Shown here: piece after piece, positions 127 to 14,661 of the stretch | Position numbering within the stretch: the first letter of the stretch is position 1 | Layout: every line of letters starts with the position of its first letter | Virus record (IMG/VR): IMGVR_UViG_3300020557_000020 | Span: 1-29,769 of that record | From: a virus | Lineage: Duplodnaviria > Caudoviricetes | Strand: one strand, 5' to 3' | DNA: 29,769 nt | Translations under genes and position numbers: made by a program | The notes under the pieces: model-generated | The model's database searches: none | Seen by the model: the letters and a program-made list of their open reading frames with translations, nothing else | Told to the model about the DNA's origin: nothing

Positions 127-687
127 GTGCAAATGACTGAAATTGTTCCGCCTTTGGAACGCGTGCCGATTGAGCCGCTTCCGCATATATCTGAGCGCGA
201 GCGCATCCACGCTGCCGCGCAGACGGCGGTTTCGCTCATGCAATTAGGCGACGATTTCGAGATTACGCCCTATGACGAGGATATAGCGCGGTCTATATTC
301 ACCAGCGGACGTGCGGTCACCCGCACTGAGATGCAAATGCCGGGCGTTGTGGTCAAATTAAACGCGCTACTAGACGAGTATGACTACGCTCTGATAAAAG
401 ACGCAGACCGCATCCGCAACTACGTTATAAACCGGCTTCTCGAAGAGTCTACGGACCCGAAAAAGTCGTTGCGCGCCCTTGAGTTGCTAGGAAAAGTGGC
501 CGCCGTTGACGTGTTTGTCGAGCGGAAAGAGGTTATGCTGACCCATCAGACGACGCAAGACATCGAAAACAGGCTGAAAGACTCCCTTGCGATCCTGCTG
601 AACGCCGAAGATGCGAGTTTTGAGCCTGCCCCGCCCCGCCAACCAGCGGTTAACGTGTCCGACATCGACTTGGACGACGTTTTATGA
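127..687 (+). CDS. probable terminase small subunit
   Basis: 186 aa ORF overlapping the terL start (ATGA). The helical 'LRALELLGK...DVFVERKEV' segment is typical of TerS-like proteins. The start could be ATG 133. Confidence 0.65.
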   Translation: MQMTEIVPPLERVPIEPLPHISERERIHAAAQTAVSLMQLGDDFEITPYDEDIARSIFTSGRAVTRTEMQMPGVVVKLNALLDEYDYALIKDADRIRNYVINRLLEESTDPKKSLRALELLGKVAAVDVFVERKEVMLTHQTTQDIENRLKDSLAILLNAEDASFEPAPPRQPAVNVSDIDLDDVL

Positions 688-3230
688 CCCTTGGGCTGGA
701 CCTGACCCCCGAACAGGTGCGCAAAATCCTGACAAACCTGCATAAACTGCCAGAATCCCAGCAGGCGCAGGTATTACGCGACATAGACGAGCTTACAGAG
801 CGTAAACGCGCCAAGAAACGCCGTGAATCGTTGCTAGACTTCGTTATGCATGTTGATAAAAACTACAAGATTGGTGCCCATCATCGCCATTTGGCGAGCT
901 TGTTAGAAGACATGGCGTTTGGCCGCAAAGACCGCGTCACTGTATCTATGCCGCCGCGCTTTGGTAAGTCGCAACTGACGTCTGTTTACTTCCCTGCGTG
1001 GTACATAGGCAATTTCCCCGATCGCCAGATCATGATGGTGACGCACACGGCTGATTTATCCGTCGATTTCGGTCGTAAAGTGAGAAATATAGTCGACTCC
1101 GATGCGTTTAGGTCTGTTTTTCCTGACGTCACGCTCGCATCAGACTCCAAAAGCGCGGGCAGATGGAATACGAGTCAGGGAGGTGTGTACTACGCTGCGG
1201 GTGTTGGTGGCGCCATTGCAGGTCGCGGTGCGCACTTTCTCTGTATCGATAAAGATGCCCTGGTAATTACGCGGGAGCGCGGGCGGGTGCCTGCGGGTAC
1301 CGTCCAGCCCGGCGAACACGTGTGGGCGTTTAGCGGGTTTAGCGTGGTGCAACGCAGGTTTGTCAACTACGCGGATGCCTTGGTACATGTTGACGGAGTT
1401 GTCATGACGTCTAACCATCCGGTGTGGACGTTCGACGCTGGATGGGTCGAAAGTGGGGCATTGACGACTCGTTCATTATTACATACAATTACGGTATGGT
1501 CGTACACTCGGCTGTATTCGGAGATTTTGTATGGACAAGCGCGTAAAGCATGGGGCGAGTCGTTCTCGGGTTTACAACGTGTGGGCTCTGATGCGCCAGC
1601 GGTGCAACAACCCGAACGCGGCGAACTATCGGTGGTACGGCGAGCGTGGCGTAAAGTGTTGCGACGCGTGGAAAAGCTTTGCGGTATTTTTGGACGATAT
1701 GGGGTATCCCCCGTTCGAGAAAGCCAAGCTGGACCGCGTGGATTCCGATGGGGACTATTGCAAGTCAAACTGTCGTTGGGTGGACGACGTCGCGCAAGCA
1801 CGGAACCGGCGCAACAACGTGATGCTGACAGCGTTCGGGAAAACGCAGTGCATGTCAGCCTGGGCCGAGGAAACGGGAATGACGGTGGACCAAGTGCGCC
1901 ACCGAGTTCTACGGCTGGGGATGCCTCCGGAAGCGGCGTTTACGGCGGCACGGATGAGTTGGGTGCAGCGCCACGTTCGACGGACGAATTTGGATGGCTC
2001 CAACGCGCGGGCGTTTTCTTCATTAGCCGATGCCGCAAAAGGCTCGGGGGTGGTGAAGGGGTCGTTATGGGCGGCTTTGAAGCGCTCATCGCCAGTAGAG
2101 TTTTCGGGTTACTTGTGGGAGTACGCCGAGTAAAGACACTGGACCTGGCACCTGTGTCGTCAACTGAAGTAGTTAACTTCCAAGTAGCTGATAGTAATAC
2201 GTATTATGTGGGTGGATTGATAACCCATAATTGTATCGACGATGCCGTCAACGAGCAAGATATACTTAACAGTAACATGGACGTGCTGGATAAAGCTTAC
2301 GATTGGTATGCTTATGGCGCGCGTACTCGTTTGATGCCCAACGGCTGCGTAGCTATTGTAGGTACGCGCTGGGCGCAGAACGATCTGATCGGGCGCGTTG
2401 TGCAAGACATGGTGCGTAACCCCGACTCGGATCAGTGGGAAGTAGTTGAGTTTCCGGCAGTGTTTGAAAAAACGGAAGCTGACGGCACCCGGACGACGTC
2501 GTCGTTATGGCCGGAGCAGTGGAGTGTTGAGTCGCTATTGCGAACGAAGGCGTCGATGCCGCCGTTCCAGTGGAGCGCCCAGTACATGCAGTTGCCGACC
2601 TCGGCGGAAGCGGCGATCATCAAGCGGGAGTGGTGGCAGCCTTGGGAAGCGGATGAGCCCCCGACGTGCGACTACATTATCATGTCGTTGGATGCTGCCG
2701 CAGAGAAAACAACACGGTCAGACTTTACGGCGCTGACTACGTGGGGGGTGTTTACGCGCGATGGCGAGGACGGGTACCCTGTAAATCACATTATCTTGCT
2801 CAATTCGATCAAGGAGCGCTGGGAATTTCCGACGCTCAAGCGGCGGGCCTACGAGGAATACAACGAGTGGAAGCCAGACTGGTTCGTAGTTGAGAAGAAG
2901 TCTGCGGGTACGCAGTTGTACCAAGAGATGCGGGCAGCAGGTGTCCCTGTGCAAGAATTCACTCCACATCGCGGTTCAGGTGACAAGACGGCCCGTCTCA
3001 ACTCTGTGTCTGATATATTTGCATCCGGTATGGTATGGTATCCTGCCGGTAGACGGTGGGCTGAAGAGGTTGTCGATGAGGTGTGCGGGTTCCCCGCGAT
3101 GCCGAATGATGACCTGTGTGACTCTACCGTCATGGCGCTAATGCGGTTCCGCAACGGCGGGTTTATCCAACTACCGGGCGACCGCTGGGACGACGCTCCC
3201 TATAAGGCGCGGCGCGCTGCATACTACTGA
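684..3230 (+). CDS. terL: terminase large subunit, intein-containing (848 aa precursor, about 518 aa after splicing)
   Basis: Walker A 'MPPRFGKS'; 'GRGAHFL|CIDD' Walker B after intein removal; 'IVGTRW' coupling motif; RNase H-like nuclease acidic motifs 'SLDAA', 'VVEKK', 'DDLCDS'. Confidence 0.95.
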   Translation: MTLGLDLTPEQVRKILTNLHKLPESQQAQVLRDIDELTERKRAKKRRESLLDFVMHVDKNYKIGAHHRHLASLLEDMAFGRKDRVTVSMPPRFGKSQLTSVYFPAWYIGNFPDRQIMMVTHTADLSVDFGRKVRNIVDSDAFRSVFPDVTLASDSKSAGRWNTSQGGVYYAAGVGGAIAGRGAHFLCIDKDALVITRERGRVPAGTVQPGEHVWAFSGFSVVQRRFVNYADALVHVDGVVMTSNHPVWTFDAGWVESGALTTRSLLHTITVWSYTRLYSEILYGQARKAWGESFSGLQRVGSDAPAVQQPERGELSVVRRAWRKVLRRVEKLCGIFGRYGVSPVRESQAGPRGFRWGLLQVKLSLGGRRRASTEPAQQRDADSVRENAVHVSLGRGNGNDGGPSAPPSSTAGDASGSGVYGGTDELGAAPRSTDEFGWLQRAGVFFISRCRKRLGGGEGVVMGGFEALIASRVFGLLVGVRRVKTLDLAPVSSTEVVNFQVADSNTYYVGGLITHNCIDDAVNEQDILNSNMDVLDKAYDWYAYGARTRLMPNGCVAIVGTRWAQNDLIGRVVQDMVRNPDSDQWEVVEFPAVFEKTEADGTRTTSSLWPEQWSVESLLRTKASMPPFQWSAQYMQLPTSAEAAIIKREWWQPWEADEPPTCDYIIMSLDAAAEKTTRSDFTALTTWGVFTRDGEDGYPVNHIILLNSIKERWEFPTLKRRAYEEYNEWKPDWFVVEKKSAGTQLYQEMRAAGVPVQEFTPHRGSGDKTARLNSVSDIFASGMVWYPAGRRWAEEVVDEVCGFPAMPNDDLCDSTVMALMRFRNGGFIQLPGDRWDDAPYKARRAAYY
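1461..1489 (+). promoter_or_regulatory. sigma70-like promoter inside the intein coding sequence, upstream of the nested endonuclease
   Basis: TTGACG(1461-1466)-N17-TACAAT(1484-1489); SD GGAG at 1520-1523, 7 nt before ATG 1531. Confidence 0.75.
1531..2133 (+). CDS. HNH-like homing endonuclease with a C-terminal NUMOD1-like DNA-binding domain, nested in the +1 frame of the intein
   Basis: 'VYNVWALMRQRCNNPN..NYRWYGERGVKCCDAW' and 'LDRVDSDGDYCKSNCRW...QARNRR' match a common phage HNH-like family; 'FSSLADAAKGSGV...FSGYLWEY' is NUMOD1-like; has its own SD and promoter. Confidence 0.88.
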   Translation: MDKRVKHGASRSRVYNVWALMRQRCNNPNAANYRWYGERGVKCCDAWKSFAVFLDDMGYPPFEKAKLDRVDSDGDYCKSNCRWVDDVAQARNRRNNVMLTAFGKTQCMSAWAEETGMTVDQVRHRVLRLGMPPEAAFTAARMSWVQRHVRRTNLDGSNARAFSSLADAAKGSGVVKGSLWAALKRSSPVEFSGYLWEYAE

Positions 3231-3240
3231 GGAATAAACT

Positions 3241-5709
3241 ATGGCGATGGAAAAAGGTCTTTACCAAGCCCCTATGGGCCTAGAAAACGCAGCGATGATG
3301 GGCGAGCCGCCGATCGAGATTGAGATCGAAGATCCGGAGTCCGTGCGCATCCAAGCGGGCGGGATGGAGCTTGAGTTAACCCCGGACGACGAGACGGGCG
3401 AGGATTTCGACGCTAACCTGGCGGAGTATCTGGACGAGAACGTTCTTGGCCGCATCAGCGAAGAGCTTCAGGAGTATTACAGCACGGACATCGGCTCCCG
3501 CAAGGAGTGGGAAGACACGTATCAGGAAGGCATTGACCTGCTCGGTCTCAAGATCGAGGAGCGTACGGAGCCGTGGGACGGAGCGTGTGGTGTTAGCCAT
3601 CCGATCCTGGCAGAGGCGGTAGTCAAGTTCCAGTCCGAGACGATCATGGAGACGTTCCCGGCGAGTGGCCCTGTGAAGTGCAAAATCGTAGGCCGGGTGA
3701 CCCGTGAGAAGGAAGAAGCGGCGGAGCGCGTTCGTGACGATATGAACTATTACCTGACGGAGAAGATGACCGACTACCGTCCGGAGCATGAGCGACTGCT
3801 GTGGAACCTGCCGATCGCGGGTTGCGCGTTGAAGAAGGTGTATCAGGACCCGTTCTTGAAGCGCCCTGTGGCGTTGTTTGTACCTGCTGAAGACTTCATC
3901 GTCCCCTACGGCGCTACGGACTTGTTGTCCGCGCCGCGTTACGCCCACCGCATGAAGAAGCCCAAGAACGAGATGCGCAAGCTGATGGTGGCCGGGTTCT
4001 ACCGCGACGTGGAGCTGGGTGAGCCGACACAGGATACGGACGAGATCCGTAAGCGCAAAGATGACTATGCGGGCATGGATGCGGCTAAAGATGACCGTTT
4101 CACGCTGCTGGAGTACCACGTAGACCTCGATATTGAAGGCTACGAAGACACAGATAAGGATGGGGAGTACACGGGCATCGCGCTGCCCTACGTCGTACAT
4201 ATGGAGAAAGGCACCGGTAAGGTTCTGGCCGTTTACCGTAACTGGAAAGAGGACGACGACACCAAACAGAAGCGCATCCACTTCAGTAAGTACGGCTACA
4301 TCCCCGGGTTCGGGTTTTACGACTTTGGTCTGATCCACCTCGTTGGTGGGTTCGCCAAGGGCGCTACTTCGTTGCTCCGCCAACTGGTGGACGCAGGCAC
4401 ATTGAGCAACCTCCCAGGGGGTTTGAAATCGCGGGGCCTACGCATTAAGGGCGACGATACGCCGATTGCTCCGGGTGAGTTCCGTGACGTCGATGTGCCG
4501 AGCGGAGCGATCAAGGAAAACATCATGACGCTGCCGTATAAAGAGCCGTCGATGGTGTTGTACCAGTTGCTTGAGAACATCGTGGCCGAAGGCCGTCGGT
4601 TCGCCGCTGTGGCTGACGTTAACGTAGCGGATATGCAGCCCAACGCTCCGGTAGGCTCTACGCTTGCTGTGCTCGAGCGCACGCTGAAGACTATGAGCGC
4701 GATCCAAGCGCGCGTCCATGCAGCGATGAAGCAGGAATTCAAAATCATCAAGACGATGGTGCAGGAGTACGCTCCGGCTGAGTACAGCTACGATGTGGAT
4801 GCTCCGGAAGGCGCTAAGGCGAAGCAGTCGGACTACGACATTGTCGACATTATCCCGGTGTCAGACCCCAATGCGTCGACTATGTCGCAGCGTATCGCGC
4901 AGTATCAAGCGGTACTGCAACTGGCTCAGACCGCTCCGCAGTTGTATGACTTGCCGGTACTGCATCGTCAGATGGTGGAAGCCCTTGGGGTGCGCAACGC
5001 GGACAAACTGGTGCCCAACCAAGATGATATTAAGCCGATGGACCCGGTGTCCGAGAACATGGCGGTGATTAAGGGCGATCCGATCAAGGCGTTTATGTAC
5101 CAAGACCACGAGGCGCATATCGCTACGCACATGGCGTTCGCGCAAGACCCGAAGATCCAGCAGATCATGCAGAACGATCCGGGGGCGCAAACCAAGATGG
5201 CGGCTGGATCGGCTCACATCGCGGAGCATGTGGCGTTCGCTTACCGGGCTGAGATCGAGAAGCAGCTTGGTGTGGCGCTGCCTCCGCCTGACGAGAAGCT
5301 GCCGGAGGATGTTGAGGTTGACCTGTCGCGTCTGACCGCGCAGGCTGCACAGCGCCTGTTGCAGAAGAATCAGGCCGAGGCTCAGCAACAGCAGGCGCAA
5401 CAACAGATGCAAGATCCGATAGTCCAGATGCAGATGCAAGAGCTTCAGATCAAGCAGGGCGAGCTTCAGCGCAAGACGCAGAAAGACCAGATGGACCACG
5501 AGATCGAGAAACAACGGTTGATAATCGAGCTGGAGCGCATCGCGTCGTCTGAGAAAACTCAGGGCGCGCAGTTGGGAGCCCGGGTTGTTGACAGCGCGAA
5601 CAAAGCGGTCTTGCAGCAAGAGAAACTGAGTGACGCCAAGAAGCTTGAAGGCTTCCGGGCTGGGATGACGGCCAGTAGGCCGCCGAAACCGACTCCGAAC
5701 GTGGAGTAA
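3241..5709 (+). CDS. portal protein
   Basis: 822 aa ORF after terL with SD GAGGA; 'EPWDGACGVSHPILAEAVVKFQ' and 'GFYDFGLIHLVGG' segments; Q-rich coiled-coil C-terminus as in podovirus portals. Confidence 0.85.
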   Translation: MAMEKGLYQAPMGLENAAMMGEPPIEIEIEDPESVRIQAGGMELELTPDDETGEDFDANLAEYLDENVLGRISEELQEYYSTDIGSRKEWEDTYQEGIDLLGLKIEERTEPWDGACGVSHPILAEAVVKFQSETIMETFPASGPVKCKIVGRVTREKEEAAERVRDDMNYYLTEKMTDYRPEHERLLWNLPIAGCALKKVYQDPFLKRPVALFVPAEDFIVPYGATDLLSAPRYAHRMKKPKNEMRKLMVAGFYRDVELGEPTQDTDEIRKRKDDYAGMDAAKDDRFTLLEYHVDLDIEGYEDTDKDGEYTGIALPYVVHMEKGTGKVLAVYRNWKEDDDTKQKRIHFSKYGYIPGFGFYDFGLIHLVGGFAKGATSLLRQLVDAGTLSNLPGGLKSRGLRIKGDDTPIAPGEFRDVDVPSGAIKENIMTLPYKEPSMVLYQLLENIVAEGRRFAAVADVNVADMQPNAPVGSTLAVLERTLKTMSAIQARVHAAMKQEFKIIKTMVQEYAPAEYSYDVDAPEGAKAKQSDYDIVDIIPVSDPNASTMSQRIAQYQAVLQLAQTAPQLYDLPVLHRQMVEALGVRNADKLVPNQDDIKPMDPVSENMAVIKGDPIKAFMYQDHEAHIATHMAFAQDPKIQQIMQNDPGAQTKMAAGSAHIAEHVAFAYRAEIEKQLGVALPPPDEKLPEDVEVDLSRLTAQAAQRLLQKNQAEAQQQQAQQQMQDPIVQMQMQELQIKQGELQRKTQKDQMDHEIEKQRLIIELERIASSEKTQGAQLGARVVDSANKAVLQQEKLSDAKKLEGFRAGMTASRPPKPTPNVE

Positions 5710-5903: not shown

Positions 5904-6275
5904 ATGTCTACAGTCGAGCAGACTGCAACTGACGAGCAGATGGACGCAGGGCTACCTAAACCCATCGGCTACAAGATCTTGATCGCATTACCCGAGATCG
6001 AAGAGACGTACGAGAGCGGCATTATTAAAGCCGATATGACGCGCAAACACGAGGAAGTATCTACCGTAATTGGCGCTGTGTTGGAGCTAGGCCCAGATGC
6101 CTACAAAGACGCGTCCAAGTTCCCGAATGGTCCGTGGTGTAAGGAAGGTGATTTTGTCATCATCCGAGCGTACTCGGGCACTCGGTTCAAGCTGTACGGT
6201 AAAGAGTTCCGTTTGATTAACGATGACACCGTGGAAGGCATTGTTGCTGACCCCCGTGGCTATTCTCGTGTATGA
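5904..6275 (+). CDS. groES: co-chaperonin GroES-like protein
   Basis: 'PKPIGYKILI', mobile loop 'ETYESGII', 'GAVLELGPDAY', 'KEGDFVII..YSGT', 'RLINDDTVEGIV'; SD AAGGAG. Confidence 0.88.
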   Translation: MSTVEQTATDEQMDAGLPKPIGYKILIALPEIEETYESGIIKADMTRKHEEVSTVIGAVLELGPDAYKDASKFPNGPWCKEGDFVIIRAYSGTRFKLYGKEFRLINDDTVEGIVADPRGYSRV

Positions 6276-8339: not shown

Positions 8340-9050
8340 GTGAACAAGGTCTGTACCGTGTGTTGTGTAGAGAAGCCGATAATGGCTTTCTATGCACGCA
8401 AGCAAATGCTTGACGGGCACAGGTCCGAGTGCAAAGAGTGCACCTTGGCCAGAAGTGGCAAGTGGCGCGATGCGAATCCGGACGCATACAAATCGTCCGT
8501 GGAAAAACATCGAGCTGCCAATAAGGATCGTATTCTGGATGCAGATAGGTTGTACCGCGAACGTAATCGAGCTGAAATTCGCGCTCGTGCACGTGAACGT
8601 TACGCTGCCGATCCGAATCCGCACAAGGATAGTGTCAAGCAGTCTGCCGCAAAATATCCAGACCGGATTGCTGCGGCCCTTAAGCGTTTTTATGCGAATA
8701 ACCCGGAGTATCGGGCTAAATACAACACACAGTATTACAAGGCAAATCGCGCAAAGTGCATTGCCTTGGCCAAGAAGCGTGAAGAGCGCATGAAGCATCA
8801 ATCAAAAATTGTTGCGGGATTGACTCAAGCGTACAAGGCTGAGGTAGACGCTATGTACCACTTTTGTCAGGTGTTTGCTGGGTACGAGGTAGACCACATC
8901 GTGCCAGTTCAAGGCAAGTGCGTGACTGGGCTGGACGTGCCTTGGAATATGCAGATTTTGACAATCACGGAAAACCGGCGCAAAAGCAACAAGTTCGACC
9001 CTGCGCTGTGGCAAAGCATCAATAAACCATCAGTGTTAAATTTTTTATAG
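8340..9050 (+). CDS. free-standing HNH homing endonuclease
   Basis: N-terminal CxxC...CxxC, basic helical linker, and 'YEVDHIVPVQGKCVTGLDVPWNMQILTITENRRKSNKF'. Confidence 0.88.
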   Translation: MNKVCTVCCVEKPIMAFYARKQMLDGHRSECKECTLARSGKWRDANPDAYKSSVEKHRAANKDRILDADRLYRERNRAEIRARARERYAADPNPHKDSVKQSAAKYPDRIAAALKRFYANNPEYRAKYNTQYYKANRAKCIALAKKREERMKHQSKIVAGLTQAYKAEVDAMYHFCQVFAGYEVDHIVPVQGKCVTGLDVPWNMQILTITENRRKSNKFDPALWQSINKPSVLNFL

Positions 9051-10133: not shown

Positions 10134-11798
10134 ATGGGTAGAAAACTGACACTGCAAGACTTCGTTACCGCCGCAGCGCAGACGCACGGGGGTAAGTACG
10201 ACTACTCGCGGGTGGTATACGAGGGGGGCCGTAGGCCGGTTGAGATAATATGCCCTCAGCACGGGGGCTTTAATCAAGCCCCGGGTAAACACCTAAGTGG
10301 GCAGGGGTGCCCTAAATGCGCAGGTAGGGGGGCAGATTGGATTCAGCGTTTCCGTGATGTGCACGGGGGTAAGTATGGCTACTCATTGTTTGAGTACACT
10401 GGGAGTCAAGCCAAATCAAAGATAATCTGCCCCCAACATGGGGTGTTCGAGCAAACGCCCCGCAATCATTATCAAGGGAAGAACGGTTGCCCTAAGTGCA
10501 CAGGTAAGGGGGTGGATTGGGTTGAGCGGTTTCAGTCAGTACATGGTGATGCATATGACTACTCATTGGTGGCATATGTAGGATACCAAACCAAAGTAAA
10601 GATTGTGTGCCGACAACATGGGGTATTCGAGCAGACACCAGATAATCATTACCACGGGAAACAGGGTTGCCCTAAGTGCGCAGGGGCTAGAATCCGTAAT
10701 GCAAAGCAGATGTGTATTGATGAGTTCGTGGCGAGGGCAGACAAGGTGCATGGCGGTAAGTTTCTGTACACTGACAAGCAGTTCGACAACGTTTTGACCA
10801 GTAAAATTAACGTGTTCTGCCGCCAGCATTCGCAGTGGTTTACCCAAACGCCCGTAAACCACCTCTCAGGTAAAACAGGGTGCCCCAAATGCAACAACAT
10901 GAAGTCCGCCCCAGAAGACGCCATCGCCACTATGCTTTCCAGGTTTACCCCGATTGAGCGCCGCAACCGTGCGCTGCTGGCCCCCCGTGAGCTGGACATA
11001 TTTATGCCGGAAAAGGCGTTGGCGGTTGAATACTGCGGGGAGTACTGGCACTCCCACGGTGATGAGGAGCATGAAGCCCGGTACTCTATGAACCATTTCC
11101 GTAAATACCAAGATTGCAAGGCCCGTGGCATCCGGCTCTTGACGATTTTCGAGTCCGAGTGGAAAGAACACAATTACGCGATCCGACGACTGCTGCGCAA
11201 CGCGGTTGGGGCGTCTCGTGGGAAACTGATGGCGCGAAAGTGCGAGCTACGTATGGTTGAGCATAAGGAAGCTGCGGCGTTTTACGACCGGTATCACCCG
11301 CAGGGCGGTTCTGGTACAGGCGCCCATTACGGTTTGTATTGGGGCGACAAACTGGTGGCCTGTATGCGGTTCACAGAAGGCGCGAACGATAGGGGCGTCA
11401 ATAAAAAACGGGAGTGGACGCTCACGAGGTATGCCACGCGTATTACGGTATCCGGTGGGGCTTCTCGGTTGTTTAGCGCGTTTCTGAAGGACAAGAACCC
11501 AAGGACGGTAAAGTCCTTCTCGGACAACCGGTATTTTGATGGGGGTATGTACAGCGCGTTGGGGTTCGATTTGTTTGAGGAAACGAAACCGGATTACATG
11601 GTGTGGCACCCTAAGCTGGGGCTGCTTAATAAGCCCGCGTGGCAACGACGAAGTATAGTTACGCGCGCCCGTGAGATTGGACGTGACATTGAGTTTGACC
11701 ACGAAGCGGACCCTAGAACTGAGCGGGATATGACGTTCTTGCTAGGCGGACGGCGCATATATGACTGCGGTAAGAAAAAATGGGTATGGAGCCGTTGA
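10134..11798 (+). CDS. Hef-like homing endonuclease (DUF723-type Cys repeats plus nuclease domain)
   Basis: Four repeats of 'HG.KY.YS...IICPQHG.F.Q.P..H..G..GCPKC', then 'ELDIFMPEKALAVEYCGEYWHS' (Vsr/PD-(D/E)xK-like), and a C-terminal 'SFSDNRYFDGGMY..LGF...RIYDCGKKKWVW' domain. Confidence 0.8.
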   Translation: MGRKLTLQDFVTAAAQTHGGKYDYSRVVYEGGRRPVEIICPQHGGFNQAPGKHLSGQGCPKCAGRGADWIQRFRDVHGGKYGYSLFEYTGSQAKSKIICPQHGVFEQTPRNHYQGKNGCPKCTGKGVDWVERFQSVHGDAYDYSLVAYVGYQTKVKIVCRQHGVFEQTPDNHYHGKQGCPKCAGARIRNAKQMCIDEFVARADKVHGGKFLYTDKQFDNVLTSKINVFCRQHSQWFTQTPVNHLSGKTGCPKCNNMKSAPEDAIATMLSRFTPIERRNRALLAPRELDIFMPEKALAVEYCGEYWHSHGDEEHEARYSMNHFRKYQDCKARGIRLLTIFESEWKEHNYAIRRLLRNAVGASRGKLMARKCELRMVEHKEAAAFYDRYHPQGGSGTGAHYGLYWGDKLVACMRFTEGANDRGVNKKREWTLTRYATRITVSGGASRLFSAFLKDKNPRTVKSFSDNRYFDGGMYSALGFDLFEETKPDYMVWHPKLGLLNKPAWQRRSIVTRAREIGRDIEFDHEADPRTERDMTFLLGGRRIYDCGKKKWVWSR

Positions 11799-13992: not shown

Positions 13993-14661
13993 ATGCCATC
14001 CAAAGATCCCGCCGTTAGGCACAAGTGGTATCTGGCGAATAAAGCCAGTGTCATAGCGCGTAGTAAAGCGCGGCGTCTGCGCATCCAACTGGAAAACGCC
14101 CCCGGTAAAGCGCGAATTGCCTCGGAGAAACGGGCTGCGCCAAAGTCCTGCACCTCCTGCGGAGCAGATATTACAGCGATATACCCTAAATATAAAATGC
14201 AGTGCGCAGAGTGCGTGGCGTCCTATATGGCGGCGTATCGCAGAAAGAACGCGGGGCGCATATCAGCGCTAAAAAAAGCGTGGGGCGTCGAAAACAGGGA
14301 GAAAAAAGCTGCGAGCGACGCGCAGTACGCGCGGGATAACCCTGAGCGCCGTAGAAACGCCCGTACCAAGTGGGCGGCTAACAACAAGGCCCAAGACGCG
14401 CAGTGTAAACTAACGAACCGCATGGCCCGTAGCAGGCGCCTTCCGGGATGGCTGACAGTTGACGATCTATGGCTTATAGCGCAAATATATGGCTTGTCGC
14501 AGCTACGCACTAAGGTAACGGGGTTCGCTTGGAATGTGGACCATATACTCCCGTTGAACGGGCGTAAGGTTTCTGGGCTGCACGTGCCAGACAATCTGCG
14601 GGTTATACCGGCGCGGGATAACTTTAGCAAGAATAATCGGTTTGAGGTTGACGGTGGGTAA
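13993..14661 (+). CDS. free-standing HNH homing endonuclease
   Basis: CxxC...CxxC, basic linker, and 'WNVDHILPLNGRKVSGLHVPDNLRVIPARDNFSKNNRF'; same family as 8340..9050. Confidence 0.88.
   Translation: MPSKDPAVRHKWYLANKASVIARSKARRLRIQLENAPGKARIASEKRAAPKSCTSCGADITAIYPKYKMQCAECVASYMAAYRRKNAGRISALKKAWGVENREKKAASDAQYARDNPERRRNARTKWAANNKAQDAQCKLTNRMARSRRLPGWLTVDDLWLIAQIYGLSQLRTKVTGFAWNVDHILPLNGRKVSGLHVPDNLRVIPARDNFSKNNRFEVDGG

Follow-up and report, generated by a model that had tools for sequence, protein, structure and literature searches.

The question raised by this locus is whether a single stretch of phage DNA can serve both as a protein-splicing element, read in the frame of its host gene, and as a separate nuclease gene, read in another. 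The host gene is terL, which encodes the large terminase subunit, in a 29,769-nucleotide stretch of the virus record IMGVR_UViG_3300020557_000020 (Duplodnaviria; Caudoviricetes), here called the window. In our judgment, the 990-bp insert in this gene is likely to be dual coded, consisting of a probable self-splicing intein and, in the +1 frame, a gene for a predicted PacI-type nuclease that would act in homing. An original prediction, made from the letters alone, had proposed an intein carrying a complete homing endonuclease gene in a different reading frame.

Two open frames in one insert

The terL frame is uninterrupted throughout the gene (Table 1), and within it the +1 frame is open from 1465 to 2133, with an ATG at 1531, so that both frames are open over the nested gene, as had been claimed; the +2 frame is closed. 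Six distinct members of this insert family are represented by DNA: the window, L138, L003, L004, L005 and L134 (L001, L137 and L142 are the same as the window, L002 encodes the L138 protein and L139 to L141 are the same as L004; these were not counted separately). The nested gene is intact in five of the six. The decayed member, L003, has ACG in place of ATG and two in-frame deletions, one of which takes out the catalytic motif.

Selection was compared frame by frame, a check named in the original prediction, between the window and L138, which has 91% DNA identity to it over terL. Over the 200 codons concerned, the ratio of nonsynonymous to synonymous substitution rates (dN/dS) was 0.09 when read in the nested frame and 1.50 when read in the intein frame. 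The exteins gave 0.07 and 0.06, and 38 of the 54 changes fell at nested third positions; the comparison thus came out as dual coding would have it. Among the five intact members, the nested protein was better conserved (56 to 94%) than the intein frame over the same bases (34 to 80%) in all 10 pairs. Synonymous reshuffling of the nested codons never left the intein frame free of stops in 4000 trials with either of two nulls (means of 7.4 and 11.1 stops), and a third-position T creating an intein-frame stop was present at 0 of 39 risk sites, compared with 31 of 121 sites elsewhere (Fisher p 1e-4). The claim that stop codons are kept out of the intein frame therefore holds. Stop avoidance was significant when pooled across five lineages (p 2e-17) and was seen in all six members, more weakly in two GC-rich ones, where 1.7% and 3.1% of own-codon shuffles were stop-free. 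The corresponding frame was stop-free in one and had one stop in four of 37 control loci of the nuclease family; these comprised 36 of 48 nuclease loci, two copies of this element and ten near-duplicates having been dropped, together with L135, a rejected candidate member that is a free-standing nuclease. We conclude that the nested protein is under purifying selection and that the intein frame is relaxed yet stop-avoiding. The N-terminal splicing part showed fewer synonymous changes (9.5/70 versus 122.5/351, p 4e-4); since one extein stretch is equally quiet, this may reflect patchy recombination.

Class 1 inteins begin with Cys or Ser, carry a TxxH motif in block B and end in His-Asn, with Cys, Ser or Thr at the +1 position. 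The insert has this set of motifs: residue 1 is Cys, T-S-N-H occupies residues 56 to 59 and the THN end is followed by Cys. Cys1, His59, His329 and Asn330 are invariant in 6/6 members. Block F lacks its usual Asp and His; the statement that all splicing blocks are present is thus accurate for Cys1, TSNH and THN-C (hyphens in motifs mark the joint) but too broad for block F. An RNA-run contig (X17, depth 3) is missing 12 bases, in frame, in block F (window 2197-2208), which may be an error or a rare allele. 

We take the PPRFGKS motif of the N-extein to be Walker A and its GRGAHFL end to be the Walker B strand. The insertion point is exact in intein-free relatives, which read GRGAHFL-CIDDAVNE in the near-copies L159/L160 and in L162. 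Cys occupies this Walker B position in 14 loci; four belong to the same terminase clade and are without the insert, three of them reading GRGAHFL-CIDDAVNE and L168 differing, and the other 10 are unrelated terminases. Furthermore, a contig of run X13 joins 1241 to 2232, skipping exactly 990 bases, as expected of an empty allele. Depths in this run were 223 for the empty joint, 194 for the intein and 396 to 405 for the flanks, the first two roughly summing to the third, and the flank contigs stop at the insert junctions. The intein start equals the C-extein start over 8 bases in the window; the shared prefix in the six members is 8, 6, 4, 4, 7 and 2.

The middle of the intein frame does not fold (residues 65 to 330 have pLDDT below 50), in keeping with the original prediction, to which a folded domain there would have been contrary, and Pfam and PHROG searches of this middle returned no family match. 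It had been described as rich in R, G and S, which is correct for R (13%, versus 5% in the ends) and G (17% versus 7%) but not for S (9% versus 8%). The top Foldseek rows for the intein model are inteins and Hint domains, the best being gp41-1 (E 0.029). A canonical bifunctional intein has its nuclease in frame with the splicing domain. Here the nuclease lies in the +1 frame instead, and the arrangement, an intact nuclease gene between the splicing blocks in another frame with the host frame open, is that of a non-canonical intein.

The predicted nuclease and its setting

The model of the nested protein has a pLDDT of 91.9, and its best Foldseek match, the sole one under E 0.001, is I-HmuI (E 9.8e-4). 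The protein matches PHROG HNH families (phrog_3377, E 3e-48; phrog_8790, 'restriction endonuclease', E 1.9e-36); Pfam and NCBIfam searches gave no family, and sequence and profile searches of the PDB gave no significant match and did not retrieve PacI. A profile alignment sets Asp68-Arg69 onto the Asp-His of I-HmuI, whereas a canonical HNH enzyme of the I-HmuI type has His after the metal-binding Asp. Arg69, Tyr76 and Asn92 are invariant in 65/65 aligned sequences, and 74 of 87 relatives have D-R or E-R at this motif. The presence of Arg at the catalytic His position of I-HmuI suggests a His-Me-finger-like enzyme rather than a canonical HNH nuclease. PacI is without this His and uses a loop Tyr in its place (PMC5714182, PMC4081073), and PacI-like enzymes form group 20 of the His-Me fingers (PMC5714182). 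The nested protein has the features expected of a PacI-like enzyme, namely no His, a conserved loop Tyr and a PacI-like fold; the Tyr match is by conservation and overall fold, not by residue superposition. No Pfam match to NUMOD1 was found in the C-terminal domain, the likeness being one of fold only. Of the earlier description of the +1 frame as HNH-like plus NUMOD1, what stands is a 200-aa gene (1531-2133) whose product is predicted to fold; Arg69 replaces the His, and NUMOD1 is recognized by fold without Pfam.

The GGAG before the nested ATG (Table 1) has purine-rich equivalents in all six members. The +1 frame is open for 22 codons upstream of the ATG in the window and for just 3 in L005. 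No conserved hairpin over the ribosome-binding site was found (z 0.29, 0.24, -0.28 and 1.91). RNA runs X16 and X17 contain short pieces of the nested gene and both exteins at depth 2 to 4; because these contigs carry no strand or start information, they are uninformative on expression.

Table 1. Features of the terL region of the window, with positions counted from its first nucleotide
Feature	Position	Strand	Basis
186-aa gene, directly 5' of terL and overlapping its start	127..687	+	ORF (open reading frame) call
terL, terminase large subunit precursor, 848 aa including intein	684..3230	+	one open frame; phrog_38 E 1.1e-90
N-extein, with PPRFGKS, ending GRGAHFL	684..1241	+	relatives' sequences
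Intein, 330 codons, class-1-type ends (Cys1 ... His-Asn)	1242..2231	+	motifs, intein-free relatives, 990-base skip joint
N-terminal splicing region, 96 codons; Cys1 1242-1244, TSNH block B 1407-1418	1242..1530	+	
8-bp direct repeat TGTATCGA, copy 1 at intein start	1242..1249	+	
Promoter-like TTGACG-17-TACAAT inside splicing region, 41 nt before nested ATG	1461..1489	+	weak lead
Shine-Dalgarno-like GGAG, 7 nt before nested ATG	1520..1523	+	purine-rich equivalents in 6/6 members
Nested +1-frame gene, 200 aa, predicted His-less (PacI-like) His-Me-finger nuclease with two DNA-binding domains	1531..2133	+	
Nuclease domain, residues 4-96: Asp68, Arg69 (His position), Tyr76, Asn92	1540..1818	+	PacI (3m7k) Z 6.7, rmsd 2.7, 79 aligned
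Middle helical domain, HTH-like, residues 97-142	1819..1956	+	weak, Z 3.7
C-terminal NUMOD1-like domain, residues 142-200	1954..2130	+	I-HmuI Z 7.4, rmsd 1.9, 54 aligned; I-TevI Z 5.2
C-terminal splicing region, blocks F and G; His-Asn 2226-2231	2134..2231	+	
C-extein, Cys+1 at 2232-2234, 8-bp repeat copy 2 at 2232-2239	2232..3230	+	sequence, relatives

The virus record that makes up the window spans 29.8 kb and is about half complete; besides terL it carries portal, GroES, capsid and virion genes. The 186-aa gene 5' of terL may encode the small terminase subunit, as its position suggests; Pfam and PHROG searches of its product gave no match. The GroES co-chaperonin gene lies 3' of the portal gene (5904-6275; phrog_3188, E 4.2e-13), and three free-standing endonuclease-like genes (8340-9050, 10134-11798 and 13993-14661) lie amid structural genes, two of them flanking the major capsid gene. 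The nearest cultured terminases, of phage DSL-LC04 and Pelagibacter phages, are 43 to 46% identical. At least half of the terL words were present in 15 of 24 listed runs, every one of which either is labelled aquatic or comes from lake water, fresh water or freshwater sediment; nine may have provided the DNA of the window.

Family, mobility and alternative explanations

The relatives of the nuclease comprise 11 full-length proteins at 54 to 95% identity, distinct from 76 weaker and mostly partial ones. Of the 990 proteins collected with a profile of the N-terminal splicing part, 149 were examined, among which 13 (12 terminases and one other protein) match the intein-frame middle of the family. 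Five insertion sites fall within about 22 codons: GGEYFA-CG, GRGAxL-CIIDD, GRGAxxL-CIDD (that of the window), GRGAxLLL-CDD and CDDL-CSEQ. Internal deletions account for the shorter family inteins of 281 and 197 aa. One predicted protein, P0103, crosses over from intein-frame to nuclease-frame sequence, which places the same nuclease at another insertion site as well. L134 and P0008 have exteins 99 to 100% identical and an N-terminal splicing part 96% identical, with whole inteins at 75%; either a swap of the nested region or its fast drift in this frame seems to account for the difference. P0366 has the N-terminal intein half fused in frame to a family nuclease and an AP2 domain, with no C-terminal splicing motif at its end. 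Searches of genome contigs found no family member, cultured phages gave no DNA or intein-frame protein match except one 63-bp piece, and DNA pattern scans yielded no new member. Among the rejected candidates, L147, from such a scan, is unrelated, a second scan returned five known members and five unrelated sequences in 10 matches, L136 is a chance match, and L024, whose stop-free frame lies next to an integrase-like gene, has a GC-rich shadow frame there and no intein.

Mobility of the insert is supported indirectly, by its patchy distribution, the deletion series and the coexisting alleles, and it is to this extent that the description of a mobile element stands. Among the best 80 of 598 confirmed terL loci, the insert is absent from 79, none of which has Cys at +1. 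The intein-free L055, L159/L160, L162 and L168 fall among intein-bearing alleles in trees. L003 and P0003 group with the window in the intein tree (94) and with the empty L055 in the C-extein tree (99); in the N-extein tree they group with the window, as in the intein tree. L005 and P0010 are 89% identical in the intein and 79% in the C-extein; L005 and P0004 are 52% identical in the intein and 88 to 93% in the exteins. Exact loss through the 8-bp repeat would leave an empty allele bearing Cys, and such alleles are seen in the clade and in X13; however, the 10 unrelated Cys-bearing terminases mean that Cys occurs at this position without this intein too, which counts against exact loss.

For the terL insert we infer the following course of events. 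The 848-aa precursor would splice by the class 1 route, using Cys1, the block B His, the terminal His-Asn and Cys+1, and would thereby discard an unfolded loop of about 200 aa and restore Walker B. Translation of the nuclease would start at its own ATG with its own ribosome-binding site, perhaps with the help of an internal promoter, and the enzyme would cut with one metal (Asp68, Asn92), Tyr76 replacing His as in PacI, guided by its two C-terminal DNA-binding domains. Empty terL alleles met in mixed infections would be cut near the Walker B codons, and repair would copy the whole insert. Deletions in multiples of three would then shorten the inteins of decaying members, and recombination between the 8-bp end repeats may remove the insert exactly. 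As to origin, it is plausible, as was originally proposed, that a free-standing nuclease gene entered a small intein, of about 130 aa, out of frame. A fuller version of this scheme, in which a Tyr-type nuclease is expressed for homing from its own promoter and ribosome-binding site, the element steps codon by codon along Walker B with its own +1 Cys and is lost exactly via the repeats, and the full homing cycle, with full, decayed and precisely lost states, runs within one lake phage population, is possible but appears doubtful to us.

Several observations weigh against a spliced, homing element. The Pfam Vint match to the insert (E 0.061) is below the cut-off, and although Vint reaches E 4.3e-5 in the best family member, Pfam Hint-type scores remain below the cut-off; the profile comparison of both frames foreseen in the original prediction gave PHROG HNH families for the nested protein and no Pfam family above the cut-off on either side. 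The intein model is poor (mean pLDDT 38, no Foldseek row at E 0.001), and the nuclease matches at Z 6.7 and 7.4 are below the tool's stated comfort level of 8. TTGAC is invariant in 6/6 members, with a good -10 in three and a poor one in three, and two promoter-like sites were found where 1.9 are expected by chance, so that the promoter is kept as a lead alone. The empty-allele joint has 22 letters on its shorter side (a flagged risk) and 85% likeness, and was seen in one of eight runs compared; the empty allele makes up about half of the X13 population, which argues against very efficient homing. As the N-extein tree follows the intein, ordinary phage recombination explains the discordance of the trees as well as homing does. 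The large tree, a quick version, is compatible with a single origin and does not force more than one. No nuclease-free mini-intein of about 130 aa was found in the family, the shortest being 197 aa. Finally, no exclusion activity against the phages tested was reported for one PacI-like nuclease of a lactococcal phage (PMC12724721).

The strong purifying selection on the nested protein would also be expected if the phage retained it for something besides homing, for instance to help in DNA packaging or to exclude co-infecting phages, and the 2015 Brucella phage paper raises a terminase-associated role for a nested HNH protein (PMC4422536). We regard this as improbable, because the insert is absent from nearly all of the surveyed terL loci (79/80), near-identical insert-free phages are abundant in run X13, some members have the catalytic core deleted and the domain layout is like that of homing endonucleases. 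It is a little harder still to credit that the nested protein is a catalytically dead DNA-binding relic whose general-base His has become Arg. The Arg itself, and the PacI-like phage protein reported as inactive in an exclusion assay (PMC12724721), would fit such a relic; the 65/65 invariance of Arg69, Tyr76 and Asn92, the D-R or E-R of 74/87 relatives and the fold match to PacI, which is active with Tyr, do not.

P0103, which combines intein-frame and nuclease-frame sequence, and the 22 open codons 5' of the ATG bring up another history, in which compensating indels displaced a nuclease that was formerly in frame, or ribosomal frameshifting yields the nuclease fused to the N-terminal half of TerL. 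This we hold to be slightly more improbable again. The ATG and an upstream purine-rich site are kept in 5/6 members, the sixth being the decayed L003, the upstream open stretch shrinks to 3 codons in L005, and 0 of 120 longer nuclease relatives match the family splicing-domain profile; P0103 itself changes frame within the catalytic motif and is without the rest of TerL, as in a broken allele or an assembly error. Least credible of all, and very improbable, is that the insert stays in the protein as a tolerated loop, as in the ShiLan element, or is an RNA-spliced intron. The weak Hint scores speak for this, as does the kind of run X13, which is a guess; the splicing residues are invariant, however, and the insert interrupts the Walker B strand. 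Group I introns are preceded by U and end in G, and no placement of the joint within the 8-bp repeat yields both. A likely self-splicing intein with a +1-frame nuclease gene for homing thus remains the reading that we prefer.

Comparison with known systems

The layout of an intein with an out-of-frame nuclease is already known, in print since 2015, from the GenBank annotation of Brucella phage Tb and from preprints of 2025-26; the high novelty initially attached to it does not survive, and the accompanying caution that alternate-frame endonucleases might have precedents was well placed. An out-of-frame, intein-encoded HNH was described in brucellaphage terL in 2015 (PMC4422536), and phage Tb (Perisivirus; JN939331, ORF07/ORF08) resembles the window in having a terL intein at Walker B, Cys...His-Asn-Cys ends, a +1 nested nuclease and an 848-aa precursor. 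The Tb nuclease, however, is a His-type zinc-ribbon HNH without sequence similarity to that of the window (best E 2.8), and the Tb insertion lies two codons further upstream (RAD-CVIIDD versus HFL-CIDD).

Likewise, the non-canonical inteins of actinobacteriophages, often in terL, have the homing nuclease in another frame or antisense and an unfolded in-frame middle, and they are proposed to have arisen in the same way, through invasion by a free-standing nuclease gene (bioRxiv 10.1101/2025.01.02.630785). The enzymes there resemble endonuclease VII (frame 3) or, when antisense, LAGLIDADG/VSR; in the main-text passages covered, no PacI-like type was found. The cyanobacterial dnaX intein (bioRxiv 10.64898/2026.09.14.751524), for which per-frame dN/dS and coexisting empty and full alleles in lake metagenomes were reported, shares with the window an out-of-frame nuclease under purifying selection, a raised intein-frame dN/dS, a Shine-Dalgarno sequence of its own and coexisting alleles, but it lies in a cellular gene, has a LAGLIDADG nuclease and is accompanied by common true mini-inteins, whereas the window has a phage gene and a predicted His-Me-finger nuclease. 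The ShiLan element is also an out-of-frame HNH gene within an open host frame, but without the splicing domain or detectable ribosome-binding site that the window has; Pacc40, an insert related to it, was compared with PacI there (PMC11855218). PacI (PDB 3m7k/3ldy) resembles the nested nuclease in fold and in having Tyr in place of His but is a restriction enzyme without the C-terminal domains, and I-HmuI (PDB 1u3e) shares the C-terminal DNA-binding domain but is intron encoded and retains the His. For canonical TerL inteins, one of them at Walker B, splicing and cleavage have been demonstrated (PMC5050341).

Apparently new are the nuclease subtype, the five neighbouring sites, the deletion series, the near-identical alleles with and without the intein and the unannotated case in phage RW. 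No PacI-like nuclease in an intein, and no RW intein, was found in the literature, a weak negative in that most subscription papers and the bioRxiv supplements lay outside coverage.

Side observations extend this comparison. The DNA polymerase of Caulobacter phage RW (MK929790.1, RW_GP057; L172:2092-3009) contains a 306-aa intein in whose +1 frame lies an unannotated gene belonging to this nuclease family (E 3e-30, 40% identical over 141 aa). Only 0.3% of shuffles left the host frame free of stops, and three related Caulobacter phages give the same nuclease match. Ralstonia phage GP4 (MH638294.1; L173:1980-2534) encodes a family nuclease nested in a DarB-like gene, again in the +1 frame; the surroundings show no intein motifs, which makes the case similar to the ShiLan element, and 2.4% of shuffles left the host frame free of stops. 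The terL of L004 carries a second intein in its nuclease domain (L004:2680-3603), whose +2 frame encodes a His-type HNH protein (2961-3566; Pfam HNH_3, E 4.5e-18), so that one gene combines two inteins, two frames and two nuclease types; for this second intein, stop avoidance was not significant (P 0.56). P0003 has a second intein similar to that of L004, and the related terminases L080 and L089 have a canonical in-frame LAGLIDADG-like intein at Walker A (motif read by eye).

Since gene callers report the terminase or the nuclease but not both, such genes are under-counted. In the literature compared here, out-of-frame intein nucleases are described from sequence only, none having been shown to be expressed or to home. 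The present case supplies an intein-free target that is exact and has the same flanks, L003 as a decayed control, and in RW a cultured phage whose host is harmless, and it indicates that an intein can tolerate a 200-residue unselected loop. If the proposal is true, a His-less nuclease type would be added to the homing endonucleases, and with this nuclease type, the run of sites and the ready target and control alleles, homing by an out-of-frame nuclease is directly testable here.

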